From Candidatus Pacearchaeota archaeon (lineage in GTDB: Archaea > Nanobdellota > Nanobdellia > Pacearchaeales > GW2011-AR1): a stretch of 64,000 nucleotides of DNA. Shown piece by piece: positions 8,214 to 49,618 of the stretch. Position 1 is the stretch's first letter. Each line of letters opens with the position of its first letter. The position numbers and the translations under genes are program-made. Location: assembly GCA_009694725.1 (NCBI GenBank), contig SICV01000001.1, forward strand, positions 65,219 to 129,218, in the 5' to 3' direction. Below the pieces are notes generated by a model. The model worked only from the letters and a program-made list of their open reading frames with translations, made no database searches and was not told the origin of the DNA.

Positions 8214-8247
8214 AGACTCTCCTTTCCCCGATACATTATAAATATAG

Positions 8248-9024: not shown

Positions 9025-10253
9025 TTTGCTAATTGTTGTCCACTCCAAACATATATCCCCAAAGCGCATGAAGCAATAATTAACCTTGTAGTAAATGATT
9101 CTATAGAGTGCGCAGTACTTAACAACACCACTTCACTCACCAATCCAATTCCAATGGCGCATATTACAAATTTTATCTTTTTTTGATTAAAAGATATGTC
9201 TTCTTTGATATTTGCAAGAAGATGGAGAAAGTATAGATTGAGAAATGTAAGAATACTCATGGCTATCCCTGTTTTAAAGAGTAGTTTTGCGGCCAAAGGT
9301 AAATCTTTACCGGAGAATAATATAATTAATTGCTCTGAAAAGAAAAAGTAGATACTGAGTAATGTGATAACAAGAAAACTTGAGAAAAGCCCTGCTTTAA
9401 TGAGTAATTTTTTTCTTTTTACTTGACTAGACATTACTGCCAATGGAAGATACGCTCTTCCAATAGGCATTGCACCCCAGAGTATTATCTTCCCCAATAA
9501 AGCTGCGAGAGCATAATTTCCAGCTATTTCTTCTGAGAATATAAGTCTGGCAATGAGTAAATCAATGGAATAAAACCCCACGACTCCCAACATAAGCACA
9601 AGAGTAATGACTCCCTTTTTGAAAGGCGCTTGTAAATGGGCCTCTTTTCTGGAAATATTTTTTAAACGTAGTTGTTTGGATGAAAGGGGAATAATTACGA
9701 GTGCTCCAATAATAACTCCCCAAATTGCACCATATAATGCCCATCCAAACCATACGAGAGATATGGCAACGCTTACTTTAACGAACGATTCTACGATAAG
9801 GCCCAAGCCCAATTCTTTAAATTTTTGAGTGCCCTGTAATCCTCCGCGCAATATTGCTGTAACAAAGGATAAAGGAATGAGGGTTCCAATGAGGAGAAGA
9901 TGTAATGAAGAAAGTTTTAGATAAGGGGCAATGAAAAATATGAGAATTGAATACAGTGTCCAGACCGCAAAGGTATATTTTAAAGCTCCTTGTGAAAACC
10001 GAATAATCGTGTCTTTTATTTTTCCCTTATCTTCTGTTTTTGAAATGAATGTTGTAACGGTTGTTTGTAATGTATCAGAAAAAAGAGAAACAAAATAAAC
10101 AACAGTAAATAAAGTTGCTAAAGCCCCATACTCTATTGGAGAAAGTAAGCGAGCCATGCTAAATTGATATATAAAATTACAAACATTGAAGAGATTATAG
10201 GCTATAAGCAAAGTAAGACTTCCCGAAAGTAACGTGAAAGATCCTTTTTTCAT
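9021..10253 (-). CDS. MOP-superfamily oligosaccharide flippase (Wzx/Rft1-like)
   Basis: 410 aa with about 12 predicted TM helices. Sits between the GlcNAc-1-P transferase and GT2 genes. Confidence 0.6.
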   Translation of the reverse strand: MKKGSFTLLSGSLTLLIAYNLFNVCNFIYQFSMARLLSPIEYGALATLFTVVYFVSLFSDTLQTTVTTFISKTEDKGKIKDTIIRFSQGALKYTFAVWTLYSILIFFIAPYLKLSSLHLLLIGTLIPLSFVTAILRGGLQGTQKFKELGLGLIVESFVKVSVAISLVWFGWALYGAIWGVIIGALVIIPLSSKQLRLKNISRKEAHLQAPFKKGVITLVLMLGVVGFYSIDLLIARLIFSEEIAGNYALAALLGKIILWGAMPIGRAYLPLAVMSSQVKRKKLLIKAGLFSSFLVITLLSIYFFFSEQLIILFSGKDLPLAAKLLFKTGIAMSILTFLNLYFLHLLANIKEDISFNQKKIKFVICAIGIGLVSEVVLLSTAHSIESFTTRLIIASCALGIYVWSGQQLAK

Positions 10254-10259
10254 CTCGGA

Positions 10260-11264
10260 TTATAATGCTCCTCGCAGATAGATGAAAGTTTCAATGATAA
10301 TAAGAAGTTGAAACGCCCAAATAAGAAGAGTCACTCGTTGTTCAGTTGCTTGTAAGCCCATTTTTTGTAAAAAGGTTATGCCGAGGTGTGTTAAGCCATA
10401 GATCTTATCATATCTTTGCTTTAGTGAACCGTCTTTTTGAGGTAATCCGAAAGAGGATTTTTTAAAGCTCCCTCGGCTTTTGAGTATAACTTCAAGAATA
10501 ATGGGAATAAAAAATAAAAGTGCAATTTTTTCAAAGTTACCAAGGATACACATTCCTGCAATGAGTCCACCAACCGGATAGGTCAGTACATCTCCTGGAA
10601 AGACTTTTGCGGGGAATCGATTGTAATATAGAAATACAAGTAATGAAGCAACCATACAGAGACCGATAATAGCAAGCCAGGAGCTTCCGGTGAGATAGGC
10701 AACTACGCTTACTGCACCAATGAGCAGTACGCCTTGTCCTGCTTCGAGTCCATTAAACCCTGCAAGAAAATTAAACGTGGTCCCTGCACCAACAAAAGCA
10801 AGAGGTATTAAGAAAAGTGGATACATAATTCCTGCATCTAAGGTTCCTATAAACGGTACTGAAATAATACTTTTACCTGCATTGATAGCCATAAGAGGTA
10901 AAGCCGCCCCTAGTGCAAGGAGAAGACGTGAACGTATTGAGAGGCCTCCTCGTTGCCAGCCCAATAAATCGTCAATTAACCCAATACCGCCCATAATAAT
11001 ACACGAAACAAGTAATGCAAATACTTCGACGGTGTGAACGTTACTTTTTGTAATAAAGGTATGATATGCGATAAAGGTAAGAACCCCACCTATGAATCCA
11101 ACCAGTACTGCAATCCCTCCTGATCCAGGTATTTTTTGCTTTCCCTGTTTGTTCATATCATCCCAGATCAATCCAATTTGCTTTGCTTTACGCATCCAAA
11201 TGGGAAGCGTATAGAGGGTAATTATAAAACTGATCCCTATAAAAATAAAATTGATATAATCCAT
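10260..11264 (-). CDS. aglH: UDP-GlcNAc:dolichyl-phosphate GlcNAc-1-phosphotransferase (MraY/WecA/Alg7 family)
   Basis: Polytopic, 334 aa. GLIDDLLG, NFLAGFNGLEAGQG and FPGDVLTYPVG motifs of the polyprenyl-phosphate HexNAc-1-P transferase family. Confidence 0.8.
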   Translation of the reverse strand: MDYINFIFIGISFIITLYTLPIWMRKAKQIGLIWDDMNKQGKQKIPGSGGIAVLVGFIGGVLTFIAYHTFITKSNVHTVEVFALLVSCIIMGGIGLIDDLLGWQRGGLSIRSRLLLALGAALPLMAINAGKSIISVPFIGTLDAGIMYPLFLIPLAFVGAGTTFNFLAGFNGLEAGQGVLLIGAVSVVAYLTGSSWLAIIGLCMVASLLVFLYYNRFPAKVFPGDVLTYPVGGLIAGMCILGNFEKIALLFFIPIILEVILKSRGSFKKSSFGLPQKDGSLKQRYDKIYGLTHLGITFLQKMGLQATEQRVTLLIWAFQLLIIIETFIYLRGAL

Positions 11265-14005
11265 TACGCTTTATTCAACCTCTTATCTGGGAAAGCAGTT
11301 TCGAGATACGTTGCATTTGATTGTTGATTCTGAGAATACGTAACTTCCCATATTCTAATCGGGCCTGCAAAGGCGCCCCCTCGTACGCCCCCATATAATT
11401 CATCATGCAAGAAGGGACCTGCAATAAGTCCTGCGTTTTGTGATTTAATCGATGCGATAACGGCATCTTCTTGTTCATGGACTAAGGTAAATCCTGTAAT
11501 CGTTTGATTGAAAAGGTATAACTGGGCGATGTTTGAATGGATCACTTTTGGTGAAAGATAGAGTGCTGCTCCGTCATTTTGTATCTGGGGTTGACCTTCA
11601 ATAGATGTTAATCGTGGATATACGAATACCCCTGCATTGATACCTTGCTTGAAATCAAATAATTGATTATTATGATAGGCGTATCGTAAGGGTATAGAAA
11701 ACTGTTTCCCTTTATGTATAAAGAGTGCAGTTGGTTGGGTGACTCCCGAGCTATTTTTATTGAACCCAATAATAATTCCTCCAATCCCTGCTGAGCCTTC
11801 AGGAAAAAATGTCTCTGTTCCATTGATTGCATAGGTAATATCTTGGTCGAGAGAAAAGCCCCCTTGATAGAGAAAGAGAGAAGCATTTTTTGTCTCGCCT
11901 GCGGCCTGTTGTTTTATCAGTGAAGGAATATAACTTCGACGATCATAGGTTGTTCCTGATCCAATGGAAGAGAAAGCCCCGTATTTTCCAATGTCTGTTG
12001 AATCAATGAGTAGATGTGTTACCTCATGCGTTTTGAAATATTGGAAGAGTTGCTCTGAACTATTTCCGGTTAATGCTAATCTCCCCATCAAATGATTCCA
12101 ATACCCATAGAGGTTTCCGCCATCGAGAACTGTTGCGCGTTTCCCAATTGATTGTACCCAATAGCCATAATCCCACCAATGTGCAAATACGGCATCTTCG
12201 GCGGTATTTTCGCGTACCCAGGCCATTGCTTGTTGCCATTGTTGGGTATATGCGCTTGGACCAAACCCTTTTGCAGTGCAATAGGACTCTTTAAAGAAAC
12301 TTGATGCAGATCCCGTACAAAAATTGTCACTGAAGAACGTACTTGAACCTGCAAGGAAACTTGTATGAAGCAAGAGGAGTGCAATCCCCACGGCACACCA
12401 GGCAAGATAGTTTGGGGTATGTTTTGATTCTTTTGATTTAACATAACATGTGACTGCAGCATAGGATGCAAGAATTGCGGCTGCTGGAACCAAGACCATA
12501 ATAGTACGTACGCTTCCGCGCGCTGAAACAACGCTAAAGAAGAATAATGAAAGGAGTACGATGTATCCAAAATCAAAGTTTCCTCGTTCCCCCTTCACAT
12601 AATAATATCCAAATACGGCTAGTAATGCAATAAGCCCTGATGCATAAAAGAGAAGACTTATCCAGTTCGTGCCATTAAATACGCTTGAGGGGTCATATCT
12701 ACTAAAAATGATCGCAATCAAGAAATAGGCAAATACCCCTGTCTTGACAATTCTTGTTTTCTGAGCATACGCATTGAATAAAGAGTAGAGTAAGATGAGT
12801 GAACCCACTATAAATGTAAAGAAAAAGGTCTTACTGAAACTTCTAATCCATTCAGTAAAGAAGGGTTGACGATTTTCTGCAACCGTGACTCCGAAACGAT
12901 CAACAATTGGGGAAACAAGGGCATTTTTAACGCTCAGGATTTGTTGTACTATATGATCAAACCCGAGTACGCCAATTCCCACCACTAACCCGAGTACTCC
13001 TGCAATACAGATATACAGGACTTGGGAAGGAACTTTGTCTTCATAGGGCACTTTTATTTTTAGTCTATCCTTCAGAACATATTCTACTCCGATCATGGCA
13101 AGTACACCGTATGCTAACCCGGTTACCGGAGATATCACGAGGCCGATAAGTGAATAACGATTGGTTGTTAGTAAAATAAGTGCTGTTGCTATCAAGAGCC
13201 AGAGTGCATAGACTACTTTGTTCGTATGATTTATGTGATTATATAAGAACATAATTGCGCACGCAATAGCAAGCGTCACGAAGATATAGACAAACCCTCC
13301 CCAGGCATTTGCCATTGCAACTGTGCCCAGAATTGCGAGTGCGAGCATGCCTCCTCTTTTTTTCCAGTGCAATGCATTCCACGCACCTATAAATCCCCAG
13401 AATGCGATAAACATGAACAAAAATCCGATCGACTCTTTTTCAGGAATTCCCGCAATGGTTCTTGGAAGTAATGCTGAGATAATGGTGAGGAGGACTGATG
13501 CAGAGAGGGCAAGAAGTGAGGCATATTTAGTTCCCAATTTGAGGGTGAACATTTCTTGCGTCATAAAAAAGAAAGCTGCGACTGTGAGTGAAAACATCAC
13601 TGCAGGAAAGAGAACTGCGGAATGCGTTACGGAATCGGTTAGCCCTAGAAACGCCAGTATATTGTGAAACCAGGCAATCATATAGGGGAGGAGTAAGAGC
13701 TCACCAGAGGTATCAAATCCAAGAGGTACATATCGCATTGCATCATGGGCCATGATTGTTCCGTTCTGTACAATATACTCTGCCCAGCGAAGGAAGAGAT
13801 ACGGGTCAAGGTCGGGACCTAATGCCCAGCCCCCTGTTGACACATCACGCAAGAGGGGAAGGTTTCTTGTACGAATCCAAAAGGCAAAATACATGAGAAG
13901 TGCGAGGGCACCGTAGGCCCAGAGCGTGCTCTTGCTTTTCACTGAAGAAAGCAGTGCGCGTAGTCGCTCTTGTGCTACTCGTGATTCGTCATCCTGACTG
14001 GACAT
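11264..14005 (-). CDS. aglB: archaeal oligosaccharyltransferase AglB (STT3 homologue)
   Basis: 913 aa. N-terminal 13-TM-like region with a GPDLDPY acidic loop. Canonical WWDYG motif (HWWDYGYW). Large C-terminal soluble domain. Confidence 0.9.
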   Translation of the reverse strand: MSSQDDESRVAQERLRALLSSVKSKSTLWAYGALALLMYFAFWIRTRNLPLLRDVSTGGWALGPDLDPYLFLRWAEYIVQNGTIMAHDAMRYVPLGFDTSGELLLLPYMIAWFHNILAFLGLTDSVTHSAVLFPAVMFSLTVAAFFFMTQEMFTLKLGTKYASLLALSASVLLTIISALLPRTIAGIPEKESIGFLFMFIAFWGFIGAWNALHWKKRGGMLALAILGTVAMANAWGGFVYIFVTLAIACAIMFLYNHINHTNKVVYALWLLIATALILLTTNRYSLIGLVISPVTGLAYGVLAMIGVEYVLKDRLKIKVPYEDKVPSQVLYICIAGVLGLVVGIGVLGFDHIVQQILSVKNALVSPIVDRFGVTVAENRQPFFTEWIRSFSKTFFFTFIVGSLILLYSLFNAYAQKTRIVKTGVFAYFLIAIIFSRYDPSSVFNGTNWISLLFYASGLIALLAVFGYYYVKGERGNFDFGYIVLLSLFFFSVVSARGSVRTIMVLVPAAAILASYAAVTCYVKSKESKHTPNYLAWCAVGIALLLLHTSFLAGSSTFFSDNFCTGSASSFFKESYCTAKGFGPSAYTQQWQQAMAWVRENTAEDAVFAHWWDYGYWVQSIGKRATVLDGGNLYGYWNHLMGRLALTGNSSEQLFQYFKTHEVTHLLIDSTDIGKYGAFSSIGSGTTYDRRSYIPSLIKQQAAGETKNASLFLYQGGFSLDQDITYAINGTETFFPEGSAGIGGIIIGFNKNSSGVTQPTALFIHKGKQFSIPLRYAYHNNQLFDFKQGINAGVFVYPRLTSIEGQPQIQNDGAALYLSPKVIHSNIAQLYLFNQTITGFTLVHEQEDAVIASIKSQNAGLIAGPFLHDELYGGVRGGAFAGPIRIWEVTYSQNQQSNATYLETAFPDKRLNKA

Positions 14006-17587: not shown

Positions 17588-17671
17588 ATCTGAAGCACTG
17601 AAAGTTTGTTTATATACCTTGCTCGCTCTCCCCGTCGTAAGCTATAAATAGCGGAATGAATAGAATCACGC

Positions 17672-18523
17672 ATGGATAGACACCACGGCATCTTATATGG
17701 GGCAGTGGTTATTCTTCTGGTATTGCACATTGCTTCCTTTCTGTCCATTAGTGCACAAATTACTCAAACTAATGCTGCCCTTACTCGTGAGACTTCTTCT
17801 CTGAATGAAAGTTTTATTTCGCTCCTGAGAGATTCTTTGCAAGAAGAACGAACTACCACTCAGCAAACATTTAGTGCTTTGCGTGATGTCATTGGAGAAC
17901 AGCAAGCATTCCAAGATACGTTACAAGAAGATCTAGAATTATTAAAATCGTCAACGGGGGATTTTTCTGAAGTTATTAGCGAAGTGATAAAAGGGGTGGT
18001 AAGTATCGGCACAGATACTTCTATGGGTACAGGATTTGTCTTAACGGATAGTGGTTATATTGTTACTAATCAGCACGTTATTGCCGGTGCAAAACGTATT
18101 GAAGTGCTTACCCATGATCGAAAAGTTATTGTTGCAACACTTATCGGTGCAGACGTCACCCGCGATGTTGCTCTCTTGAAAGTTAACGCCGTATTTGAAT
18201 CCTTAGAACTTGCAGATGATTTGCCAGTTGTGGGCAATAAAGTAATTGCTATCGGTAACCCTTTAGGGTTAGCATTTACGGTGACTGAAGGAATTGTATC
18301 CGCTTTGAATCGAAAGGGCCCAAATGGGCAGCAAGAATATATTCAAACGGATGTTTCCTTGAACCCTGGGAATTCAGGAGGCCCCTTAATTAATGTACAA
18401 GGAGAAGTGGTGGGGATGAATAATTTCAAAGTGGGGAATGCTGAGAGTTTAGGGTTTGCATTAGAGGGGGATGTGGTAAAGCGTGTTGTCAATACATTGG
18501 CAAATGCAACCATTCTTTCCTAA
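17672..18523 (+). CDS. membrane-anchored trypsin-like serine protease (HtrA/DegP S1C family, no PDZ seen)
   Basis: N-terminal TM. GTGFV...TNQHV (His), DVALLKV (Asp) and GNSGGPL (Ser) catalytic motifs. Confidence 0.8.
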   Translation: MDRHHGILYGAVVILLVLHIASFLSISAQITQTNAALTRETSSLNESFISLLRDSLQEERTTTQQTFSALRDVIGEQQAFQDTLQEDLELLKSSTGDFSEVISEVIKGVVSIGTDTSMGTGFVLTDSGYIVTNQHVIAGAKRIEVLTHDRKVIVATLIGADVTRDVALLKVNAVFESLELADDLPVVGNKVIAIGNPLGLAFTVTEGIVSALNRKGPNGQQEYIQTDVSLNPGNSGGPLINVQGEVVGMNNFKVGNAESLGFALEGDVVKRVVNTLANATILS

Positions 18524-18801
18524 TGGCCTTAGGAAAAAAGGCCTCGCATCGTTTGCATCATCAGTATCTTTTATTTGCTTCTTCAGATGTTCATCATGTT
18601 GAACAGGGATTACTGGAAGGGATAGGTTTGTTGGGATGGATGCGAGCCCAACCTGTCTTTGAAAAAATTAAACAACAGGTAGTAGTTGCCTGTCATCCTC
18701 GGATGATGAAAGACATTCGAGCGGCAGCACTCCTTTGTTCTCCTCCTTTAGCCATTCTTTCTGTTTCTGGGACTCTTGCAGGCTTAGGGAGAAACCAATG
18801 A
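18523..18801 (+). CDS. small His-rich hypothetical protein
   Basis: 92 aa. Its start overlaps the protease stop (TAATG) and its stop overlaps the next start (ATGA). No motif recognised. Confidence 0.35.
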   Translation: MALGKKASHRLHHQYLLFASSDVHHVEQGLLEGIGLLGWMRAQPVFEKIKQQVVVACHPRMMKDIRAAALLCSPPLAILSVSGTLAGLGRNQ

Positions 18802-19271
18802 AAGGACAATTAGAACTGTCATTTGGCATGATTTTTTCATTACTGATTATTATTGCGACTGTCGGTACTGCCGGATACTTTATTACGAAATTTGTAGAAA
18901 CGGGAAAATGTACCACGTTACAATTGGCGTATGCGGAGTTACAAGAAGGAGTAGATTCTGTCTGGGGCGCTGCTGTTGGAAATAAAGAAATCTCATTGCA
19001 GGTGCCTTCAGGGATTACGTCTCTTTGTATTGGTGATATGAGTTCAGGCACGAATGCGACCTTGCGCGAGTTAATTGATGTGTATATCGTCGAAGGTATC
19101 GGCGTGTATGCGTTACCCCCTACAAACGCGTGCGATGGTGAACTTGCTGCGCGCAAATTAACCCATCTTGCTTCTACTCCGCTCTTATGTAAGCCCGTTG
19201 TGCGAGGAAAAGTAACGTTCCGGGTTAGTAAAGAAAGTGTCAGTGAACGGATGGTTCGTATCGATGCGTAG
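18798..19271 (+). CDS. class III (prepilin-like) signal peptide protein 1
   Basis: N-terminus MKGQLELSFGMIFSLLIIIATVGTAGYF is a short basic leader, G|Q, then a hydrophobic helix. The ORF-track start at 18735 was trimmed to the coupled ATG. Confidence 0.55.
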   Translation: MKGQLELSFGMIFSLLIIIATVGTAGYFITKFVETGKCTTLQLAYAELQEGVDSVWGAAVGNKEISLQVPSGITSLCIGDMSSGTNATLRELIDVYIVEGIGVYALPPTNACDGELAARKLTHLASTPLLCKPVVRGKVTFRVSKESVSERMVRIDA

Positions 19272-20190
19272 AGGATTTGAATTTAGTTTTTCCTGGTTGT
19301 TTTCTTTGATTGTGGGGGCGCTTATTTTGATTCTTGCGATTTATGGGGTGAGCACGTTTGTGGGACAAGAACGTACCATCAGCGATAGTGAGACGGCGCA
19401 AGCATTGTCTGGATTGTTGAGTCCATTACAAACAAGTGTTGAAACATCCTTCCGCCCAAATCCGATTATATTTCCCCAGGCAACTGAAATTACCTTAGGA
19501 TGTACGCGTGATGCAAGTAGTGTGCAAACGCGGGCGTTGTCGAGTATCGGACGAAACAGTGTGCCTGGATACGCCCAAGAAACTGCTGGCGTTGCAGTAT
19601 TTGGCAATACGACGCTGACCGGGACAACCGTGCATAGTTTAGTGGTCCCCTTTCTCTTTCCCTATAAAATAAGTGACCTCGTCATTGTCTGGACGCAACC
19701 TCTCTGCTTGGTTAGTGCGCCTGAAGCTGTTCTTGACACCTTTGGTTCTGATAATCATAGTGTGCAGGCAGTACAACAGGTACGTGGATGTCGTAAAGGG
19801 ACGCGCATTATTTGTTTTGATCAAACACAGGGATGTGATGTTGCAGTTGATTCGTATCTCCGACGAGTAACCACAGGGGGAAAATCATTGTATTATGAAG
19901 GTGCTTTGTTGTATGGTGCGTTGGTTGCCTCCCCGCAGGTCTATGAATGTCAGATTGGTGTACTCATGCACCGCGGGGCTGCTTTGGCAGACCTGTATGC
20001 GGGGGCAAGTGCACTTATTGGGGCGCATGGAGAAGGATGTAGCACGGCCGTTGGTACTTCAGTAGTTCAGTATGGGCGTTCACTTCGCTCGACTAATAGT
20101 TCAAAACAATTGGCAGGTCTTGCTGAACAAGCAGAAATACTTGGAACAGACGAACGATCGAGTATCTGTTCACTCTGGAGAAATGCATGA
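19264..20190 (+). CDS. class III signal peptide-like protein 2
   Basis: N-terminus MRRGFEFSFSWLFSLIVGALILILAIYG. 8-nt overlap with the upstream gene. Cys-containing ectodomain. Confidence 0.5.
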   Translation: MRRGFEFSFSWLFSLIVGALILILAIYGVSTFVGQERTISDSETAQALSGLLSPLQTSVETSFRPNPIIFPQATEITLGCTRDASSVQTRALSSIGRNSVPGYAQETAGVAVFGNTTLTGTTVHSLVVPFLFPYKISDLVIVWTQPLCLVSAPEAVLDTFGSDNHSVQAVQQVRGCRKGTRIICFDQTQGCDVAVDSYLRRVTTGGKSLYYEGALLYGALVASPQVYECQIGVLMHRGAALADLYAGASALIGAHGEGCSTAVGTSVVQYGRSLRSTNSSKQLAGLAEQAEILGTDERSSICSLWRNA

Positions 20191-20660
20191 AGGGACAACT
20201 TAAAATTCAAGAAATGGCGTTCGTGATTGTAGCGCTTGTCTTACTTTTTGCTCTTATCGCCGTTTTCTTTACTTCCTGGCGTTTGCATTCGGTCAAAGGA
20301 GAGGTGGAAGCACTACAGGAATATGCGGGAGGGAAACTGGTGAGTCAACTCGTCAACACTCCTGAACTCCAAGGATCTTGCCAAGGATGTGTTTCCTGGG
20401 ATCATGCCTGGGTACTTGCAGAGGGAAATTATTCACTCGCTGATCGATGGAACCTCGATTATTTAGAAGTGCAGATTCTCGGGGTCAATCGTACCTGCAC
20501 TGCACAACAGTACCCTGAGTGCGGGAGCATTACGCTTATTCGAGGTGACGCCTATGGCACAGCACAGCGGGCATTCAGTGCTATGTGTTATTGGGATCCT
20601 TCGATCAATCAGGAACGATGCCAGTTGGGTATGGTATTGGCATCAGGAGGGAAAGCATGA
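20187..20660 (+). CDS. class III (prepilin-like) signal peptide protein 3
   Basis: N-terminus MKGQLKIQEMAFVIVALVLLFALIAVFF. ATGA overlap upstream. Confidence 0.55.
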   Translation: MKGQLKIQEMAFVIVALVLLFALIAVFFTSWRLHSVKGEVEALQEYAGGKLVSQLVNTPELQGSCQGCVSWDHAWVLAEGNYSLADRWNLDYLEVQILGVNRTCTAQQYPECGSITLIRGDAYGTAQRAFSAMCYWDPSINQERCQLGMVLASGGKA

Positions 20661-21127
20661 AACGAGGGCAAGAAGAGATTGTTGGATTCGCTGTACTCTT
20701 GGTGGTATTAGCTATCGTGGGCGTTATCTTATTGGGCATGTATCTTCGATCTCCTGTTCCTGAATCAAGTACCTTTCCTGAAGGGGGAAGTTTCTTGGAT
20801 GCGTTGCCCCAGGTGACGAGTTCCTGTGCGCTTACTGGAGATCGATTGATTTCAGTGCATGAATTACTGGTACAGTGCATTATGCAACCAGGAAAACAAT
20901 GTGCGTCTGAAGAATTAATATGTACGGTAATGAATAACACACTCCATTCATTAGTTACCCAGGCGTTTCCGATCGGAAGCAGGATTGAGGGCTATCGTTT
21001 CACGGTGAGTGAACCTGATACTCCTCCGGTCGTTACACTTTCTGCAGGAAATTGTACGTCCTATCAGGGAGATCAACGCTTTTTGCCCGGTACTGGTTAT
21101 TCATTGGCACTTTTTGTGTGTACTTAA
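20657..21127 (+). CDS. class III (prepilin-like) signal peptide protein 4
   Basis: N-terminus MKRGQEEIVGFAVLLVVLAIVGVILLG. ATGA overlap upstream. The ORF-track start at 20585 was trimmed. Confidence 0.55.
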   Translation: MKRGQEEIVGFAVLLVVLAIVGVILLGMYLRSPVPESSTFPEGGSFLDALPQVTSSCALTGDRLISVHELLVQCIMQPGKQCASEELICTVMNNTLHSLVTQAFPIGSRIEGYRFTVSEPDTPPVVTLSAGNCTSYQGDQRFLPGTGYSLALFVCT

Positions 21128-21483
21128 AAATGTAGGGTGAGATGTAATGCGTCGAGAATGAGCAGAGGTTTTGCACAAATACGTTTTCCTCTTTTTTCAG
21201 GCACGAGGGTAATAATTCCAAATTTAACGAGTAGTTTACAATCGGTGAGCACCGCTTTATAGGGGCGATTTGCTCGGTGTGCGAGATCATAGATGGAATG
21301 AGGGCTGTTAATTTTAATGAGATGAATGAGGCGTGCACGTTCTGAACTTAATACTGCACGAATATCTGCAAGTTGTGCAAGATCTACTTCTTTATGTTCT
21401 CCTGCAAGACGTTTAAAGAAGGTATTGAATGCACCACTTCGTTCTGCAAGATGAATTACTTTTGTTTTTTCTCTCTTCCCCAT
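21124..21483 (-). CDS. winged-helix DNA-binding protein (ArsR/MarR-like, putative regulator)
   Basis: 119 aa. ...RARLIHLIKINSPHSIYDLAHRANRPYKAVLTDCKLLVKFGII resembles an HTH plus wing. Convergent with the pilin-like operon, with a 4-nt overlap. Confidence 0.5.
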   Translation of the reverse strand: MGKREKTKVIHLAERSGAFNTFFKRLAGEHKEVDLAQLADIRAVLSSERARLIHLIKINSPHSIYDLAHRANRPYKAVLTDCKLLVKFGIITLVPEKRGKRICAKPLLILDALHLTLHF

Positions 21484-21844: not shown

Positions 21845-24481
21845 ATGAAAATAAATTTTAGAAAAATTGCATCTGTTCTCGCAAGTACTGCGATGTTAAG
21901 CTCAACGCTTGCACTCGCAGCTGCTGCAAACTACCCAGCTCCTTTCGTTCAAAACGGAAATGCTGGTGTAGCGGTTGTATACGGTAGCCTTCCTGGCGCT
22001 GAATTCGACCTTGCTTCGGTTACTACAATTACCGGCAATTTGCAAGCTAAACTAAGCGCACAGAGCAGTTCTTCTGGAAGTTCTACAACTACTTCAACAA
22101 GTGGTGAAACATTCCCATTATTCACAAGTTCTACGAAAATCTATCTAAACAATAGCGCTAACGTAGTGCGATCAACGCTTACTGAATCTGAACTAGCTAC
22201 TATCTTAGAAGATGGTTCATTCTCCGGTAATGTTGATGCTGATTTTATCCAAACAATTACTATGGGTGCAAACCCTCGTGTTGTGTACGATAAATTACCA
22301 ACAAGTGATGACGATCCAAGTTTCGGTATCCAATTAGGTACGAATGCTAATACGCAACCTATCTATAACGCTACTGTTACCTTTGATCGTGCAGTGAACT
22401 TTACTAATAGTGATTCTGAAGGAGAAGAGCTTACTCTTTTCGGTCAGAAATTTACTGTTGGTTCTGCAACTGATGATGACGAATTAGTGTTGTACAAGTC
22501 CTCTGAAACAGCTACTTTAACTTTAGGTGGGTCTGCTCCTTCTCCGTCTACTTCGGTAACGGTTGATGGCGCAACATACACTATTGATCTCATATCCGCT
22601 TCGGATACAGATGCAACGGTTAAAGTAACGAATGCAGCAGGCGTTTCTGATACTAAGAAAATTAATGAAGCTTCTTCTAAGACCGTCAATGGTTTGGAAG
22701 TTGCTATTAATATTGCAGATGAATCTGATGCTACGAATACTGCTTTTGCAGAAATTACTGTTGGCGCAGAAAAAATCATTTTGCAAAGTGGATCAGAAGT
22801 AAAAATTGGCTCTGATGAAGATGCTGTCGAAGGCACCTCTGTAACATTTACAGGTAGTGTTGACGATATCACCAAAATCACCTTAGCTGTCGCTGCAAGC
22901 GACTCTGATGAAGATGCTATTGTTGCCGGCGGTTCATTCGTGGACCCTGTCTTCGGTACATTTAAAGTCAATTTTGCAGGAATGACTATTCTTGCCAACT
23001 CAAGTGATCGAGAAAAGATTCTTATCAAAGCCTCAGGCAATGATAAGATGACTGTTAATCTTGCTACCCATAAAGATGATGCTGCAAAGACTATTACGTT
23101 CATTAACAACGAGACCGCTATGGTTCTTGGTGATAGTGATCGTGATATTTTCGTACTCCCTGAAATGGCGCCAGTTAACAAATCTCAATACACTCTCCTT
23201 GGAAACGAGGATGATGGCTACTTAGTTGAAGTTACTGCGGTCACAAACGCTACAAGCGGTTATGATAACGATAAAGTTGAAGTTAGAGATGTCTTTACAG
23301 GAGATACATACGAAGCTACATTAACAGCTGAAGGTTCTGGTACTATTACTGTCGGTGGCCGTTCTTATTCGGTTACCTACACTGGTGCGAGCGACCTCAC
23401 TGAACGTGCTCGTTTTGTTCAATTTAATGACCCTGACACCTCCTCTGGAGTTGTTAATGTCTTAAATACCCTTGAAACATCTAAAGGTGCTAAAGTTGGA
23501 TTCTACACTCCGATTACCCTTAACTTGTCGAATGTGAATAACGTTCTTCAAGATAATGGGGCTTCTGCCTCTACTCTTAAGTTCCCGAATGGTGATGGAT
23601 ATACATCGATTACTGTTTCGAAGAACTCTACGGATGGAGCAGGATGGATTGTTAACTCTGCTTTGTTAAATACCTCTTCTAACGCAACATCTGTTGTTAT
23701 ATCTGCTGGAGCATTAGCTTGGAATATCTCTACCACTTCGGTTCAGAATCAGACATCTGTGAAATTAAACACTCCAGATTCTAATACAGCTATTAGTCTT
23801 CCGGCGTTATTCCTCTTTGAGGAAGAAGATGACCTCAACAATGAAGAATCAATTGTTGTTCGATTTAGTGGTTATGTCTCCAGTTCTACCCCAATTCAAA
23901 TTGCGGGTGTTGATCTTGGATGGCAAGAACTCTTTGTCGATAGACAATCTGAATCTAATGATGATATCTATACAAGTATGGACTTTTTCGGTTCTCTTGT
24001 TACTGAAGACCGTGCTGATTCCGATCAGTACGTTGTCACTATCAGTTACCCTGATGAACAAGTAAATGCTCTCTTGTATGCAGGTGAACTTAGTTCTTCT
24101 GTTGCATCCACGGGCTCCGGCTCTGGTCTCAAAGAATTAGGATCGGTTCATGTAAAGGACACTGAAGTTGCTTCAGTATCTTCGAAGAACCTCATCGTTG
24201 TTGGTGGTAGCTGTGTCAATACACTTGCCAAAGAACTTCTTGGAGGAGCTGCTTGCGGTTCCGACTTCGAACAGAAGACGGGCGTTGGCGCTGGATCATT
24301 CTTGATCCAAAGCTTTTCGAGAACTGGTGGTAAAGTTGCTACATTAGTTGCGGGTTATTCTGCAGCTGATACTGAAGCTGGAGCTAAAGTGTTGACTACT
24401 CAAACTGTTGATACAACAGTCGGTAAGAAATACAAAGGCACTGGTAACACAGTAGCAATGGTTGATACAACCTCTGCTTAA
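21845..24481 (+). CDS. S-layer (major surface glyco)protein candidate
   Basis: Sec signal peptide (...TLALAAAANYPAPFV). 878 aa, rich in Thr/Ser/Asp/Asn with many N-x-S/T sequons. Only two Cys, near the C-terminus (VVGGSCVNTLAKELLGGAACG). Strong SD and terminator. Confidence 0.6.
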   Translation: MKINFRKIASVLASTAMLSSTLALAAAANYPAPFVQNGNAGVAVVYGSLPGAEFDLASVTTITGNLQAKLSAQSSSSGSSTTTSTSGETFPLFTSSTKIYLNNSANVVRSTLTESELATILEDGSFSGNVDADFIQTITMGANPRVVYDKLPTSDDDPSFGIQLGTNANTQPIYNATVTFDRAVNFTNSDSEGEELTLFGQKFTVGSATDDDELVLYKSSETATLTLGGSAPSPSTSVTVDGATYTIDLISASDTDATVKVTNAAGVSDTKKINEASSKTVNGLEVAINIADESDATNTAFAEITVGAEKIILQSGSEVKIGSDEDAVEGTSVTFTGSVDDITKITLAVAASDSDEDAIVAGGSFVDPVFGTFKVNFAGMTILANSSDREKILIKASGNDKMTVNLATHKDDAAKTITFINNETAMVLGDSDRDIFVLPEMAPVNKSQYTLLGNEDDGYLVEVTAVTNATSGYDNDKVEVRDVFTGDTYEATLTAEGSGTITVGGRSYSVTYTGASDLTERARFVQFNDPDTSSGVVNVLNTLETSKGAKVGFYTPITLNLSNVNNVLQDNGASASTLKFPNGDGYTSITVSKNSTDGAGWIVNSALLNTSSNATSVVISAGALAWNISTTSVQNQTSVKLNTPDSNTAISLPALFLFEEEDDLNNEESIVVRFSGYVSSSTPIQIAGVDLGWQELFVDRQSESNDDIYTSMDFFGSLVTEDRADSDQYVVTISYPDEQVNALLYAGELSSSVASTGSGSGLKELGSVHVKDTEVASVSSKNLIVVGGSCVNTLAKELLGGAACGSDFEQKTGVGAGSFLIQSFSRTGGKVATLVAGYSAADTEAGAKVLTTQTVDTTVGKKYKGTGNTVAMVDTTSA

Positions 24482-24757: not shown

Positions 24758-24778
24758 TGATGGTTACGCTTGGAAGAG

Positions 24779-25333
24779 ATGCGTTCATTAACTTCTGCTT
24801 CTGATACAACCTCGAAGCGTTCATCTCAGCTTTTCTTATATTTTGCCGTGGGAATTATGATTGTAAGTAGCGTGGGATATGCCTTCTTATCAAGCCCGAG
24901 TAGCGATACGCTTCCTCCCGATACTTCTAATGCCCCTACGGGCATCCAAGACCTCGGAAATGGTGTCTGGTCTGCGAATGTCTATGGTGCTTCGTTTCAG
25001 TTTTTGACGAGTCCTGATGATGTGGGAAATGTTACGTTGATGACTAACATTACTCTTGCAGAATTAGTTGCTCTTCCGATCGAATATAATATTGCAAGTC
25101 CCAGCTTAGGAGAGGCAGTAGGGATGACCGTGGGACAATTAGTTGCTTCTCAGCCTGTATGCATTGGCAACTGTGTGGAAGATGTGCCTGAGCGTGATTG
25201 TACAACGCCAGTTATTTCTTGGAATCAAACTGCTCTGGTGGAGAGAGTCTACCAGCAGAAACAATGCATTATAATTGAAGGAAGTCGCACTGCTTTTGAT
25301 GCCTGGGTTTATCGTTTAACGAGTCTAGCATAA
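24779..25333 (+). CDS. signal-anchored hypothetical envelope protein
   Basis: N-terminal TM (LFLYFAVGIMIVSSVGYAFL). The ORF track starts at TTG 24770, but the ATG is favoured by promoter spacing. Confidence 0.4.
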   Translation: MRSLTSASDTTSKRSSQLFLYFAVGIMIVSSVGYAFLSSPSSDTLPPDTSNAPTGIQDLGNGVWSANVYGASFQFLTSPDDVGNVTLMTNITLAELVALPIEYNIASPSLGEAVGMTVGQLVASQPVCIGNCVEDVPERDCTTPVISWNQTALVERVYQQKQCIIIEGSRTAFDAWVYRLTSLA

Positions 25334-25343
25334 TCCTTAAAAG
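25330..25343 (+). promoter_or_regulatory. BRE/TATA element ATAATCCTTAAAAG
   Basis: Near-identical copy of the 24744 element. Ends 22 nt before ATG 25365 and is followed by TTACGCTTG. Confidence 0.5.
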
Positions 25344-25364
25344 GCACTTTACGCTTGTGTGAAA

Positions 25365-26057
25365 ATGGTTCGGAAGCAGAAAAACACGTCTGATGATCTC
25401 CAACGATTAAGACAAGAAGTCACACAATTTGCAGGAAAGATCCCCCTTTGGGTCTGGTGGTTGTTAGTTCTCGTGTTTGGAGCCTTTGTCTTTCAATACA
25501 CGCTTGTTGCGATGACGACCTACACGTATAAGGGATTAACGTTTACGATTGAACAAGAGGGCGATTTACGCCTTCACCATCATGCGTATTTTATTGATCC
25601 CACTACGCGTTATAATTTATATTTACGTGAAGATCCTCGTGAGAATGAAGTACCAGTTACCGGACGCATCATCTATGACTCTCGCCGGGTCTATTTGAGT
25701 GTCAATACGAGTGAATTGAATACGTGTTCAGATAGTGCCGTTGGGGTGGGGACCCTGACCTCATTCCTTGGATTAAATGGGTTGAAAGTGAAATCTGCTT
25801 CTCCTGATCCTCTGAAGGCTGCCGAATTTAATGTGACCCATGCAGACTGTACCACGAATCAGGAAGAAGAAGTTACTCTTTTACAAGCCATGGTTATTAT
25901 TCTCCAAGCTGGAGAAGAATCATCAGTGGAAAGGATACAAGACCGGTGTTTTGTGCTGACTGTCCAGAACTGTAGTGTTATCCCGGTTATTGAGAAGTTC
26001 ATGGTTGAATCTGTTGCACAACGACGTGCATTGGGTGCAACTTCACTCAGACCATAA
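25365..26057 (+). CDS. signal-anchored hypothetical envelope protein
   Basis: N-terminal TM (IPLWVWWLLVLVFGAFVFQY). The ORF track starts at GTG 25359. Confidence 0.4.
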   Translation: MVRKQKNTSDDLQRLRQEVTQFAGKIPLWVWWLLVLVFGAFVFQYTLVAMTTYTYKGLTFTIEQEGDLRLHHHAYFIDPTTRYNLYLREDPRENEVPVTGRIIYDSRRVYLSVNTSELNTCSDSAVGVGTLTSFLGLNGLKVKSASPDPLKAAEFNVTHADCTTNQEEEVTLLQAMVIILQAGEESSVERIQDRCFVLTVQNCSVIPVIEKFMVESVAQRRALGATSLRP

Positions 26058-26132: not shown

Positions 26133-26744
26133 TTATCGTTTATGTTTGTAATAGTAGCAGAGCCCCACAATAAGGCAGATTCCGACAACTCCGAGAGTAA
26201 TTTGATTCAAATACTGATGCAAAAGAGTATAGTTTTCTCCGACAATAATCCCCAGGGTGATGAGAATGAATGACCAGACTCCTGCCCCGAATGCTGTCCA
26301 GAGTGTGAAGAGTATAAGGGGCATCTTGCCAAACCCTGCCGGAAGGGAAATGAGTTGCCGAATGACGGGGATAAGGCGTCCAATAAATGTGGTGATGGTG
26401 CCGTGTTGTGCAAAATACCTTTCTGCTTTTATAATTGAACTCTTCGAGAGAAGGAAAAATGAACCATATTTTGCTACTAATGTATTCACTGTTTTTCTCC
26501 CCAATGTAAGCGCAATATAATAATTCACATATGCCCCTATGAGGCTTCCGAAGGTACTTGCAAGGAGTACGAGCCAAAATGAAAGTTCTCCCCGTTGAAT
26601 AAGGATGCCTGCGGGAATAAGGATTACCTCACTCGGAAAGGGGATGAATGAGCTTTCTACTGCCATTAGTACCGTTATCCCCGTATAACCAGAGGTACCA
26701 ATTGTTTGGACGAGCCAATCGGCGAATGTCTGAAGTACGCTCAT
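26133..26744 (-). CDS. DedA family (VTT domain) membrane protein
   Basis: SSFIPFPSEVILIPAG and FIGRLIPVIRQLISLPAG motifs typical of DedA. Confidence 0.8.
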   Translation of the reverse strand: MSVLQTFADWLVQTIGTSGYTGITVLMAVESSFIPFPSEVILIPAGILIQRGELSFWLVLLASTFGSLIGAYVNYYIALTLGRKTVNTLVAKYGSFFLLSKSSIIKAERYFAQHGTITTFIGRLIPVIRQLISLPAGFGKMPLILFTLWTAFGAGVWSFILITLGIIVGENYTLLHQYLNQITLGVVGICLIVGLCYYYKHKR

Positions 26745-27277
26745 TGCTTACTCTGCATTGCTTTGATAAGGTTTTGTATATCCGTGAGAATGGGAATTTC
26801 TTTTATATCATAATAGGTTGCAGTCCCGAACCAACAGGCAATGACAATTAATGTGCTTCCGGCATACCAAAAGAGGGCATGTGTTGCATCAAATAATGAT
26901 TGATTACTTGTCGCGAGATAGGTTGCGAGAAGAATGCGAAGGAGATTGACGAGAAAGAAGATGCCGAAACTTGTTGCAATCAGTTTTCCTCGTTCTTTCC
27001 AGGAAATAGGAATGGTGCAGGCACAGATAAGGAGAAGATAATATGCTGCTCCTGCGATACAGGCAGGGACGAGCGCGATATATTCTCCTTTAAACACCAA
27101 GCTTGTTTCTGCAAGAAGCGTTGTGTGACTGACGAGCGATAAGGCAAGGTATGTACCGAACACGGTGAGGGGGGTCAGAAACCAATAGAGGGGGGCAAGG
27201 GCGTAGATACCGATTACCAAGATAAGCCCGTATCGTAGGAGATAGTCGTATTCTTCGCGCATACGTATCTTACTCAA
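26741..27277 (-). CDS. small exosortase/archaeosortase-family transpeptidase
   Basis: 178 aa, polytopic. Candidate Cys-Arg-His signature residues in the expected order: LVPACIAGAAY, LVNLLRILL, DATHALFWYAGS. ATGA overlap with dedA. Confidence 0.6.
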   Translation of the reverse strand: MSKIRMREEYDYLLRYGLILVIGIYALAPLYWFLTPLTVFGTYLALSLVSHTTLLAETSLVFKGEYIALVPACIAGAAYYLLLICACTIPISWKERGKLIATSFGIFFLVNLLRILLATYLATSNQSLFDATHALFWYAGSTLIVIACWFGTATYYDIKEIPILTDIQNLIKAMQSKQ

Positions 27278-27311: not shown

Positions 27312-29219
27312 TTATCTGCGAGAGACAATGACTGCAACTACGATAATCAAGATAACGAGGACTACGTTTACTGCAATCAACACCCAGGTCCAAGAGCTTC
27401 CATCAAAGAGGGAGTCGCTTGCAACTTGCACCACAACTTGACGAGATTGGATTTTCCCATCTTCAGTTCGAGCATTAATTGTAAAGCTTTGTTCGCCTGC
27501 TGCGTCATCTTGTGGCATCAAGGTAATTGTAATGTCCTTTGATTGGCCTGCTGGAATTTGTACGATGTTTTCTGAAATATCTTTCAAACTTGCCCAGCTT
27601 TCAAAGCCAGTTGCCGTTACTGCAAATAATGCTGTTTTATCCCCATTGTTTCTCAAGGTGGTTGTAACTTTCAATTCTTCACCAGTTACCGCATCTGAAG
27701 CAAGGTCTGCATTGATAGAGACTGCATTCGTGGTACCTGGAGCTGCTGAACAACCGAATACTTTCAATTGTGTTTCAACATCATCATCAAGTGATTGACG
27801 ATAGACACCATTTCGATAGTCATATTCTGCTGATAAGTCAAGCGTGTAGGTGTTATCTGCAACTTGAGGTACGGTAAATGAGAAGGATACCATTTTACTG
27901 TCTCCTTGGTCAAGACCTTGTGTGATTTCTACAATTTCATTTACGCCAAGAACACGATTTACCAAGTTGATTAAAACGCGATCTTCGTCATCTTCGCCGA
28001 TATTGATTGCATCTGCGGTAATAGTAACTGAATCACCACAGGTTACTTGTGTTGGAGAGACAGTAATATCATCAAATGCAATGAATTTGCCTTCATCATC
28101 TTCTGACTTTACTTGAATTGTTTCTTGAATACTTTCAGCAACGCTATCAGTACAGAGAGACGATTGACTAACATCATCGCTAAATGCTTTCAAAATAAGT
28201 GTGTATGAACCTTCATCAATATCTGCAGGGACTTTAAAGGTAAATTCAATCTTCGTATCATCGCCATCATCAAGATCCCCTACATCAAATTCTTCTTCGC
28301 CTTCTGAAGTGAAGTCGAGTTCATCAGCAACATTGTTACCATTTGAATCAAATAAACCGAGTTCAACAATAAGATCTTCAAGATCTGAGCTACCGGTGTT
28401 TTCAATTTCTACTTCAACAGACACTTCATCAATAACATGCCATTCATCATCTTCATCGCCAGAACTGGTAAGTTCAACGTCACGAAGGGTAAGATTTGTT
28501 GTTACTTTACCTGCTGGGCAGAATCCGCCGGTTCGTGTAAAGGTAACTGATTGATTACCTGTAGCGTGAACAGCTGTAACTACTGCAGACGATGTGCCAA
28601 TACGGAACGTTTGGCCCGCAGTAGGGGAAACAGTAACTGTTGTGGTAGAACCAACCGTAACGGTTGGATTGCTATTTGAAAATGAGACGTTTAAAGCACC
28701 TGAAGCTTTTACTAATGAGAAGGTTAATGCTTGATTACCTGTGTTTGTCAATGTTAGAGAACCATTTTGAGAAGGAGTAACTTCTGCTGTTTTTGTGAGG
28801 GTGTACGCCGTGGATGTATTAAGAGTAACTGTAAAAGTATTAGATAGAGTGTCTGCGCCAGTACCTGTAGTATCATCTGCATTGAATCTACCTGAAATAG
28901 TTCCTGTTTGAAATGCCGGAAAATTGATTGTTGCAGTGATTGTTGCGGTTGTTCCATTACCAAGAGTTACTGGATTTTGAGAGAAAGAAACAGAACTTAC
29001 GGTACCTGAAACGGGAACATAAGTCAAATTTGCTACTCCTGAATTTGCACCTGCAGCGTTTGTTACATTAAATATTACCGTAAATGAACCTGCATTGTGT
29101 GCTACAGAGGTAGCACTTTGAGAGACGATAGCTGGATCAGGGTTAAAAATCATCGCAGAAGCAACGCTTACTAAGAACAAAGATGCAAACAAAGCGACAA
29201 ATAGTTTTGTGAAGTTCAT
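27312..29219 (-). CDS. large secreted surface protein with C-terminal TM plus basic tail (probable archaeosortase substrate)
   Basis: Sec signal (LFLVSVASAMIF). The Thr/Ser/Asn-rich half has many sequons. The acidic half has Ig/CARDB-like repeats. C-terminus is ...SLFDGSSWTWVLIAVNVVLVILIIVVAVIVSRR. Confidence 0.6.
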   Translation of the reverse strand: MNFTKLFVALFASLFLVSVASAMIFNPDPAIVSQSATSVAHNAGSFTVIFNVTNAAGANSGVANLTYVPVSGTVSSVSFSQNPVTLGNGTTATITATINFPAFQTGTISGRFNADDTTGTGADTLSNTFTVTLNTSTAYTLTKTAEVTPSQNGSLTLTNTGNQALTFSLVKASGALNVSFSNSNPTVTVGSTTTVTVSPTAGQTFRIGTSSAVVTAVHATGNQSVTFTRTGGFCPAGKVTTNLTLRDVELTSSGDEDDEWHVIDEVSVEVEIENTGSSDLEDLIVELGLFDSNGNNVADELDFTSEGEEEFDVGDLDDGDDTKIEFTFKVPADIDEGSYTLILKAFSDDVSQSSLCTDSVAESIQETIQVKSEDDEGKFIAFDDITVSPTQVTCGDSVTITADAINIGEDDEDRVLINLVNRVLGVNEIVEITQGLDQGDSKMVSFSFTVPQVADNTYTLDLSAEYDYRNGVYRQSLDDDVETQLKVFGCSAAPGTTNAVSINADLASDAVTGEELKVTTTLRNNGDKTALFAVTATGFESWASLKDISENIVQIPAGQSKDITITLMPQDDAAGEQSFTINARTEDGKIQSRQVVVQVASDSLFDGSSWTWVLIAVNVVLVILIIVVAVIVSRR

Positions 29220-31283: not shown

Positions 31284-31327
31284 GAGCAGAAAGGCAAAAG
31301 ACGAGTATAAAAAACTACTGAAAAAAT

Positions 31328-31399
31328 GGGGATGCCCGGATTTGAACCGGGGTCGCGAAGTCCCAAACCTCGAATGTTACCAGGCTGCACCACATCCCC
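31328..31399 (-). tRNA. tRNA-Pro (anticodon UGG)
   Basis: Reverse complement folds as a cloverleaf: acceptor GGGGATG/CATCCCC, anticodon stem CGAGG/CTTCG with loop TTTGGGA, T-arm CCCGG-TTCAAAT-CCGGG, discriminator A. No encoded CCA. Confidence 0.85.
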
Positions 31400-49452: not shown

Positions 49453-49618
49453 GTAATCTGAGAAACAATCGCATTGAACGTAGGTATCTCAGGTATTCCT
49501 TTGTATCTTTTCTAGCTGAAGCCCCCTTGTTCAATGTATTTCAAGTGAATAAGCCTATCTACTCTAGGAAAGTACCTGCATGAAAACCATTATAAACATC
49601 CGACGTGATGAGGAGAGT

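Follow-up and report, generated by a model that had tools for sequence, protein, structure and literature searches.

The subject of this analysis is a run of six co-directional genes (genes 1 to 6, positions 17672 to 21127) within a stretch of 64,000 nucleotides (nt) from a Candidatus Pacearchaeota contig (SICV01000001.1), which as a whole is referred to as the window. Our main finding concerns the last four of these genes, g3 to g6, whose products are new, widely conserved archaeal class III signal-peptide proteins. The initial annotation had described the six genes as one operon led by an HtrA-like protease, with a small His-rich protein in second place and four prepilin-like proteins behind it. 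Its reading of the letters holds: the coordinates of the six open reading frames (ORFs) and all five overlapping junctions (TAATG at 18521-18525, ATGA at 18798, ATGCGTAG at 19264-19271, ATGA at 20187 and again at 20657) were recovered on re-reading, the N-termini of genes 3 to 6 read as quoted (Table 1), and cysteines are present in each of their ectodomains (4, 8, 6 and 6, respectively). On metagenome contigs, independent gene callers give the same six genes, and conservation in about 85 loci rules out that genes 3 to 6 are chance ORFs or an artefact.

A TATA-like box (CTATAAATAG) lies 20 nt upstream of the ATG of gene 1, a spacing that suits an archaeal TATA box and a leaderless mRNA. Judged by archaeal promoter geometry, it is the putative promoter of a leaderless transcript, so that the leaderless start proposed earlier is plausible. 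GGAG or AGGAGG is found 6-8 nt upstream of the ATGs of genes 3, 5 and 6, and at the far end the convergent winged helix-turn-helix (wHTH) gene overlaps g6 by 4 nt, as had been noted. The coordinates bear out the tight, co-directional packing, and the region is probably a single compact, leaderless polycistronic stretch. Nevertheless, gene overlaps alone are weak evidence of linkage, because 19 of the 50 same-strand neighbour pairs overlap across the window, of which about 92% is coding. As set out below, the six-gene stretch joins two unrelated modules, one consisting of genes 1 and 2 and the other of g3 to g6.

Orthologues were collected from metagenome contigs, by an exhaustive hidden Markov model (HMM) search and from one genome per GTDB species (80 loci), and the six-frame ORFs of all loci were searched with iterative HMMs derived from the window proteins. 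The relatives of the window proteins, near-identical ones included, come from Candidatus Pacearchaeota or Nanoarchaeia metagenome-assembled genomes. For g4, the exhaustive HMM search returned 1,235 representatives at E<=1e-3, all of them about 300-330 amino acids (aa) long, which overturned the picture of a tiny family (7 clusters) given by a word-index search. The N-terminal statistics cover 79-85 loci overall, with 80 loci for g3, 81 for g5 and 79 for g6.

Across these loci all four proteins start with a leader of 3-39 residues (medians 5-11; 4-39 residues in g6) which ends in a conserved signature. Lys or Arg occupies position -3 in 63-89% and position -2 in 83-94% of the sequences (83% in g3). 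Position -1 is Gly or Ala in 99% of g3, 99% of g4, 97% of g5 and 91% of g6 sequences (in detail G82/A17 for g3, G54/A43 for g5 and G56/A35/S6 for g6, in per cent), and these values become 97-99% throughout, with 97% for g6, if Ser is counted as well. Gln follows at +1 in 85% of g3 and in 100% of both g5 and g6; g4 is the exception and carries Phe (69%) or Ile (21%) at this position. Strong conservation starts right at +1, with mature N-termini of the form QxxxSFGMIFS (g3), FEFSFxW(I/L)F (g4), QxKIQ(Q/E)MAF (g5; K+3 in 94%, Q+5 in 96%) and QEE(I/M)VGF (g6; E+3 and G+6 both in 100%), and hydrophobicity scans place a hydrophobic stretch of about 20 residues directly past the predicted cut site. 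The g4 figures from genome loci are partly circular, because the pattern used for the genome scan was the g4 N-terminus itself, derived from an alignment of 9 sequences. Pattern-free g4 HMM hits display the same motif, [KR][KR][GA][FI]EFSFxW[IL]F, and g3, g5 and g6 played no part in locus selection.

Archaeal prepilin peptidases require G, A or S at -1, a charged residue at -2 and a site before the hydrophobic domain (PMC4371748). The EppA substrates EpdA-E of Methanococcus maripaludis are cut at KGQ[VLI] or RAQI sites with Gln at +1 (PMC4371748). A motif scan found only six credible genes with a class III-like start in the whole window, four of them adjacent. Because of this clustering, and because the signatures are kept in 79-85 loci, chance does not account for four class III-like N-termini in a row. 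As an internal control for the specificity of the motif we used p187 and p232, two signal anchors encoded next door. Both show long, variable and charged N-termini followed by a transmembrane helix, and neither has a [KR][GA]Q motif; without a conserved cleavage motif, these two were ruled out as further class III proteins.

The predicted structures fit well with these N-termini. The AlphaFold model of g3 (pLDDT 84.3, pTM 0.71) has at its N-terminus a helix of 48 residues (9-56), after which come beta strands, and this predicted shape is the "lollipop" outline of a pilin. For g4 (pLDDT 76.6) the model contains a helix (9-52), a beta domain (66-210) and a C-terminal helical bundle. In profile-profile comparisons g3 and g4 have their N-terminal 80 residues in common (hhalign 96.9%), as have g5 and g6 their N-terminal 65 residues (94%), and within both pairs nothing common was detected beyond these 65-80 residues. 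Pilin paralogues are likewise related only through their N-terminal part. The cysteine counts of the ectodomains are even and most of the cysteines are conserved; in addition, each ectodomain carries 1-3 N-x-S/T sequons. Together with the statistics at -3, -2, -1 and +1, the helix-plus-beta models bear out the prepilin-like (class III) nature that had been assigned to genes 3 to 6.

Synteny separates the quartet from the two genes in front of it. In about 85 loci g3-g4-g5-g6 form a four-gene module in the same order, and its junctions are tight, with median distances of +2.5 nt for g3/g4 (overlapping in 33/80), -10 nt for g4/g5 (57/81) and -4 nt for g5/g6 (53/79). Downstream, the order g3-g4-g5-g6, wHTH gene (opposite strand), S-layer-like gene, p187, p232 and, further on, pacearchaeosortase and PACE-CTERM genes (both on the opposite strand) is essentially invariant. 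Upstream, a census of 69 species-level loci with at least 1.5 kb in front of g3 gave a mixed picture: HtrA-Pop5 (the families of genes 1 and 2, see below) in 26, Pop5 with no space for HtrA in 10 (gap between RNase J and Pop5 of 2-135 nt), same-strand homologues of the second surface cluster of the window in 21, and other arrangements in 12. Nine of these 12 are one of the listed arrangements broken by inserted genes, and with them HtrA-Pop5 comes to about 29 loci and the second cluster to about 27. The Pop5/g3 junction is loose (median +48 nt, overlapping in 5 of 44), and the last gene of the second cluster ends a median 38.5 nt before g3. The invariant order from g3 to the S-layer gene, the variable upstream genes and the loose Pop5/g3 junction therefore indicate two independent modules. 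HtrA and Pop5 are neighbours of the quartet in part of the clade only, and its stable partners are the wHTH and S-layer genes, to which other lineages add the Cys-rich surface cluster. In consequence, the six-gene operon stands as far as packing and a probable common promoter are concerned, and falls as one functional unit led by a protease. What had appeared as an unusual protease-led pilin operon is, according to the census, a lineage-specific juxtaposition in a compact genome.

Besides, some loci carry inserted genes just in front of the quartet. In four of them (L054, L065, L066, L081) inserted genes recur between c727 of the second cluster and g3, and the genes inserted upstream of g3 include one for a PIN-domain protein (assigned by its cluster) and one for a 6-transmembrane Schlafen/AlbA_2 protein. 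This suggests a hot spot at which defence or mobile genes are inserted.

Gene 1 matches Trypsin_2 in Pfam (E 1.4e-33), has the catalytic triad H135/D165/S235 in the motifs TNQHV, DVALLK and GNSGGP, and starts with a single transmembrane helix. The HtrA-like membrane protease of the initial annotation is thereby confirmed. It shares the trypsin-like domain, the H-D-S triad, GNSGGP and the N-terminal membrane anchor with the HtrA/DegP (Do) proteases, and differs from them in the missing PDZ domain: none was found with Pfam or NCBIfam, and the chain ends 5 residues past the protease domain. Because of this, gene 1 falls under the NCBIfam family cut-offs, with 182 bits against the 416 bits of TIGR02037 and coverage of profile positions 58-229 of 434, which is the protease part only. 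Gene 1 is thus an extracytoplasmic, membrane-anchored serine protease of the HtrA/DegP type without PDZ, and a lineage-specific neighbour outside the conserved quartet module.

For gene 2, the label of a small His-rich protein gave way to a different identification. A profile of 41 orthologues matched component 2 of ribonuclease P (RNase P) over its full length (3wz0_C, E 8.2e-10), the top matches were five Pop5 structures (3wz0_C, 2av5, 6k0a, 2czv and 10cy "Pop5"), and 37 of the 41 orthologues matched Pfam PF01900 (Rpp14/Pop5). The window copy is the most divergent of the orthologues, and searched singly it gave no match, Pfam included. With the archaeal Pop5 proteins the family has in common the full-length profile match to the Pyrococcus, Thermococcus and Methanocaldococcus structures and a conserved C-terminal VSGT(L/I)K motif; in contrast, it is short (92 versus about 120 aa) and divergent, with a window copy that misses the Pfam model. 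By these profile matches, gene 2 is assigned as a divergent RNase P protein component 2 (Pop5/Rpp14) with a housekeeping role. Module 1, formed by genes 1 and 2, is housekeeping and stands beside the quartet in some lineages of the clade only. The coupling within it is odd yet conserved: in 22 of 29 species a gene for an extracytoplasmic protease overlaps one for an RNase P subunit (median distance -4 nt), and the pair is oriented divergently from RNase J.

On its other side the quartet opens into an envelope island (Table 1). The wHTH gene follows directly after g6 in 70 loci (median gap 1 nt) and, as an invariant neighbour, is a candidate regulator. Next to it, in 72 loci, lies the gene of the S-layer-like protein, which has a Sec-type signal and no C-terminal anchor and whose orthologues carry PF05124. 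Pacearchaeosortase and PACE-CTERM genes are conserved downstream of the quartet in 45-46 loci. The upstream part of the island comprises an N-glycosylation cluster with an AglB-like protein, SpoIIM, prefoldin and RNase J. At the AglB position, a 913-aa multi-transmembrane protein (11264-14005, minus strand) gives weak, sub-threshold hits to the STT3/PglB core (E 1.5e-4), and its orthologue in one other locus (L011) carries PF02516 STT3; it is probably a divergent oligosaccharyltransferase.

Table 1. Positions of the genes and features discussed, in the coordinates of the 64,000-nt window; a vertical stroke in an N-terminus marks the predicted cut site.
Feature	Position	Strand	Remarks
TATA-like box CTATAAATAG	17642-17651	+	putative; from sequence reading
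Gene 1	17672-18523	+	283 aa
Gene 2	18523-18801	+	92 aa
Gene 3 (g3)	18798-19271	+	157 aa; N-terminus MKG|QLELSFGMIFS...; 4 Cys
Gene 4 (g4)	19264-20190	+	308 aa; N-terminus MRRG|FEFSFSWLF...; 8 Cys
Gene 5 (g5)	20187-20660	+	157 aa; N-terminus MKG|QLKIQEMAFVIV...; 6 Cys
Gene 6 (g6)	20657-21127	+	156 aa; N-terminus MKRG|QEEIVGFAVLL...; 6 Cys
wHTH gene	21124-21483	-	119 aa; PF25212 (HVO_A0114), E 5.6e-14
S-layer-like protein	21845-24481	+	878 aa; weak PF05124 S_layer_C, E 0.0028
p187 and p232, small membrane-anchored proteins	24770-26057	+	conserved in 51-52 loci; ordinary signal anchors
Pacearchaeosortase	26741-27277	-	NCBIfam NF033505, 154.6 bits (cut-off 80)
PACE-CTERM putative S-layer protein	27312-29219	-	NF033506, 507.6 bits (cut-off 110); C-terminal transmembrane helix
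c252, class III-type	44816-45574	+	252 aa; N-terminus ..KMRG|QVIIWVF
c1300, giant Cys-rich membrane protein	45550-49452	+	1300 aa; 64 Cys
c270, class III-type	49580-50392	+	270 aa; N-terminus ..RTRG|QVTFFVL
c489, Cys-rich membrane protein	50389-51858	+	489 aa; 43 Cys
c727, Cys-rich membrane protein	56029-58212	+	727 aa; 21 Cys

The second surface cluster lies between 44.8 and 58.2 kb, in this window 24 kb away from the quartet. It combines two further class III-type proteins, c252 and c270 (in the c270 family -1 is G in 94% and +1 is Q in 100%), with the membrane proteins c1300, c489 and c727, and no Pfam or NCBIfam family was found for any of the five. By eye and without alignment, c489 resembles the N-terminal half of c1300 and c727 its C-terminal half. 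In 21-27 species homologues of this cluster stand immediately upstream of g3 on the same strand, and c727 is the gene immediately before g3 in many of them. For the giant Cys-rich membrane proteins, a role as adhesins in contact with a host is plausible.

An assembly ATPase, a platform protein and a prepilin peptidase had been reported as absent from the window, and this agrees with our searches: Pfam scans of 49 of its largest ORFs found no T2SSE ATPase, T2SSF platform or A24 peptidase, and a tblastn search with Pacearchaeota T2SSE ATPases, which covers the ATPase only, returned nothing. A motif screen of all fetched loci found no GxGD[x]K peptidase motif and one true T2SSE ATPase. This 609-aa protein (E 2.7e-109) is encoded in locus L037 (Pacearchaeota RIFCSPLOWO2_01_FULL_32_14, 7486-9312, minus strand), where its gene is inserted between Pop5 and g3 in divergent orientation, 184 nt from g3. 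Its closest relatives are of the bacterial PilB/GspE type, for example from Patescibacteria, with about 45% identity. Stand-alone T2SSE ATPases of about 610 aa are also present on archaeal Pacearchaeota contigs (L094, 10001-11821; L095, 5101-6954), with no platform or peptidase gene beside them. Secretion ATPases therefore exist in the Pacearchaeota clade, and they may have been acquired horizontally from bacteria.

In L094 this ATPase occupies the slot between IF5A and FKBP. The same slot of the window holds a 275-aa ORF without a Pfam family (36911-37738, plus strand), located between a small ORF (36390-36782, minus strand), which is IF5A by position only, and the FKBP gene; a tblastn search found no ATPase remnant in it.

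Building on gene content, signal signature, conservation, synteny and the predicted helix-plus-beta architecture, we infer the following sequence of cleavage, assembly and function. The g3-g6 precursors would enter the membrane via their N-terminal hydrophobic helix and be cut after the conserved Gly or Ala by a class III signal peptidase encoded elsewhere. The mature proteins would then have, close to the N-terminus left by the cut, conserved residues that are polar or acidic (acidic residues are found at +2/+3 in g4 and g6 and at +6 in g5) and carry disulfide-bonded, glycosylatable heads. Through their N-terminal helices they would assemble in fixed stoichiometry into a complex that resembles a minor-pilin set or a short pseudopilus, and this complex would act at the S-layer. 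In other lineages, the quartet would share its operon with two additional class III proteins and with giant Cys-rich proteins of the membrane. We hold this view of g3-g6, as four prepilin-like proteins that form a minor-pilin-like or short-pseudopilus complex at the S-layer, with moderate confidence.

The closest known sites are those of the Epd pilins of M. maripaludis (type IV filament (TFF) "system 1", EpdA-E). Both sets combine a short basic leader, Gly or Ala at -1, Gln at +1 and a hydrophobic helix, with KGQL in g3 and g5 and RGQE in g6 compared to KGQV, KGQL, KGQI and RAQI in EpdA-E (PMC4371748), and in both cases several different small pilin-like genes share one operon. TFF system 1 has also been reported in some DPANN archaea (bioRxiv 10.64898/2026.04.22.720090). 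In contrast to the Epd pilins, the quartet lacks the Glu at +5, carries acidic or basic residues at +2/+3 and has Phe or Ile at +1 of g4. It also misses the Pfam model Class_IIIsignal, no EppA, ATPase or platform gene was found at the locus, and no relatives of the ectodomains were detected in Pfam, in NCBIfam or among solved structures.

For the way in which g3-g6 work, the most plausible model, by analogy, is a minor-pilin or pseudopilin quartet such as GspHIJK of type II secretion or FimU-PilVWX with the adhesin PilY1 in type IVa pili. Like these, g3-g6 are four pilin-like genes in fixed order and in single copy per genome, with one subunit much larger than the others. They are located away from ATPase, platform and peptidase genes and in many lineages stand beside very large putative adhesins. 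The comparison is an analogy only, as no sequence or fold match between the bacterial quartets and g3-g6 was detected, and unlike the former, g3-g6 have no G|F-x-x-x-E motif and belong to an archaeal S-layer setting with no secretin. Unlike in a type IV filament locus, ATPase and platform are not part of the quartet locus, and L037 is the one locus of 85 with a T2SSE ATPase by g3.

Several observations weigh against the minor-pilin reading. In 84 of the 85 loci there is no peptidase, ATPase or platform gene within +/-10 kb, and the proposed function of the g3-g6 complex is read from gene context. At the sequence level, the partial circularity of the g4 figures adds to charged residues at +2/+3 (E in g4 and g6, K+3 in g5), which are unusual after a cut site, and to the absence of the EppA-typical Glu at +5, where S (g3), F (g4), Q (g5) and V (g6) are found instead. 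A strict FlaFind-style pattern, in place of which the published criteria for -1, -2 and +1 were applied here, fails at +2/+3 for all four proteins. Pfam gave no relevant match for g3-g6 at E<=1, Class_IIIsignal and Pilin_N included, and among the NCBIfam models only the class III model TIGR04205 responded, for g3 (E 0.029, 14 bits against a cut-off of 65). Foldseek searches with the g3 and g4 models found nothing in the PDB at E<=0.001; the best pilin was FimA (3sok_A, E 2.1, TM score 0.26). Against PDB sequences, the profiles of g4, g5 and g6 gave transmembrane-helix noise or nothing relevant, and g4 is without a Pfam, PDB or Foldseek match altogether. Pilin heads are highly variable. Weak hints for a pilin nature come from the TIGR04205 hit of g3, from Joint Genome Institute (JGI) labels ("UPF0333" and "pseudopilin PulG") and from the g3 profile, whose best hit among PDB sequences was PilE1 (E 0.083, weak and limited to the helix).

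The main rival takes these negative results at face value. Here g3-g6 would stay uncleaved as bitopic (type II) proteins of an S-layer anchoring or assembly complex unrelated to type IV filaments, and [KR][GA]Q would be a topology or interaction signal. Such a role fits well with a quartet that is found everywhere next to the genes of the S-layer-like protein, the pacearchaeosortase and the PACE-CTERM protein, with an 878-aa S-layer-like protein that has no anchor of its own, and with the lack of machinery genes near the quartet, of a curated class III model match and of a structural match to pilins. However, a -1 position limited to G/A(/S), a variable leader and conservation that sets in at +1 are the expectation for a peptidase site, and the motif is absent from the true signal anchors next door. 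In addition, Gln at +1 in 85-100% of g3, g5 and g6 matches the EppA substrates (PMC4371748), and the models give a pilin-like helix of 45-50 residues rather than a transmembrane segment of 20 residues. We consider it unlikely, though worth keeping in mind, that the four proteins are uncleaved anchors. A further alternative accepts the class III signals and dispenses with the filament: they would display binding or receptor proteins, as known for the sugar-binding proteins of Sulfolobus. Outside the pilins, binding proteins with class III signals occur widely among archaea (bioRxiv 10.64898/2026.04.22.720090), and the g3-g6 ectodomains are mutually different and Cys-rich. As in the Sulfolobus bindosome (BasABC together with sugar-binding proteins), class III signals occur on small proteins plus larger surface proteins (c252, c270), and the structure would be embedded in the envelope rather than being a long filament. 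In contrast to the bindosome, the quartet has no BasEF-like ATPase or platform nearby, and neither an ABC transporter nor a solute-binding domain was found in or next to the module in 85 loci; moreover, with about 100 aa in three of the four proteins the heads are small, and they match no binding-protein fold. A display of binding proteins is thus highly improbable.

Taken as one functional unit, the six-gene operon of the initial annotation would have its HtrA-like protease mature, quality-control or degrade the four pilin-like products. This has some appeal, since secreted proteins rich in Cys are plausible substrates for an HtrA outside the cytoplasm, the six genes overlap in this lineage and probably share one promoter, and HtrA is kept upstream of the quartet in 26-29 of 69 loci. 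However, a housekeeping RNase P subunit is placed between protease and quartet, ten Pop5-g3 loci have no room for HtrA, a different cluster precedes g3 in 21-27 loci, Pop5 and g3 are normally some 48 nt apart, and overlaps are common window-wide. We regard a protease-led operon as very improbable and largely excluded.

In this context, it should be considered that Pacearchaeota are abundant, uncultured and ultra-small DPANN archaea which are thought to live attached to other cells. The quartet, c252/c270, c1300/c489/c727, the S-layer-like protein and the pacearchaeosortase system could in principle constitute a Pacearchaeota-specific host-attachment organelle, derived from type IV filaments and without a cognate archaeal ATPase/platform locus; at present this is a speculative and rather unlikely extension of the minor-pilin reading. 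Such an organelle might use the stand-alone ATPase of the bacterial (PilB/GspE-like) type found in Pacearchaeota, which in L037 is encoded right beside g3. In type IV pilus contexts of archaea, pilin sets encoded apart from the ATPase have been described, and so have S-layer-like proteins, adhesins and multi-Cys components (PMC4858521; bioRxiv 10.64898/2026.04.22.720090). The putative tie of g3-g6 to the Pacearchaeota envelope and to the giant Cys-rich surface proteins is of interest.

Irrespective of the mechanism, the quartet adds four unannotated pilin-like families, with g4 representatives called "hypothetical" wherever they are named. Its position is fixed beside the S-layer gene, the wHTH regulator candidate and the pacearchaeosortase system, and in many lineages it is joined to the operon of giant Cys-rich proteins. 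The quartet and its envelope-island neighbours are thus candidate components of a surface or attachment structure in DPANN archaea. Besides, two annotation traps could be corrected: a divergent Pop5 missed by single-sequence search, and a "protease-pilin operon" that reflects genome compaction only.

Three further features of the window were noted in passing. A 709-aa class II aminoacyl-tRNA synthetase of the D/K/N type (59892-62021, minus strand) combines an anticodon OB fold with a C-terminal HD domain. A tRNA-Ser(tga) (41770-41851, plus strand) was called by ARAGORN and not by Rfam at the gathering threshold, and a tRNA-Pro (31327-31399) is the sole tRNA called by both.

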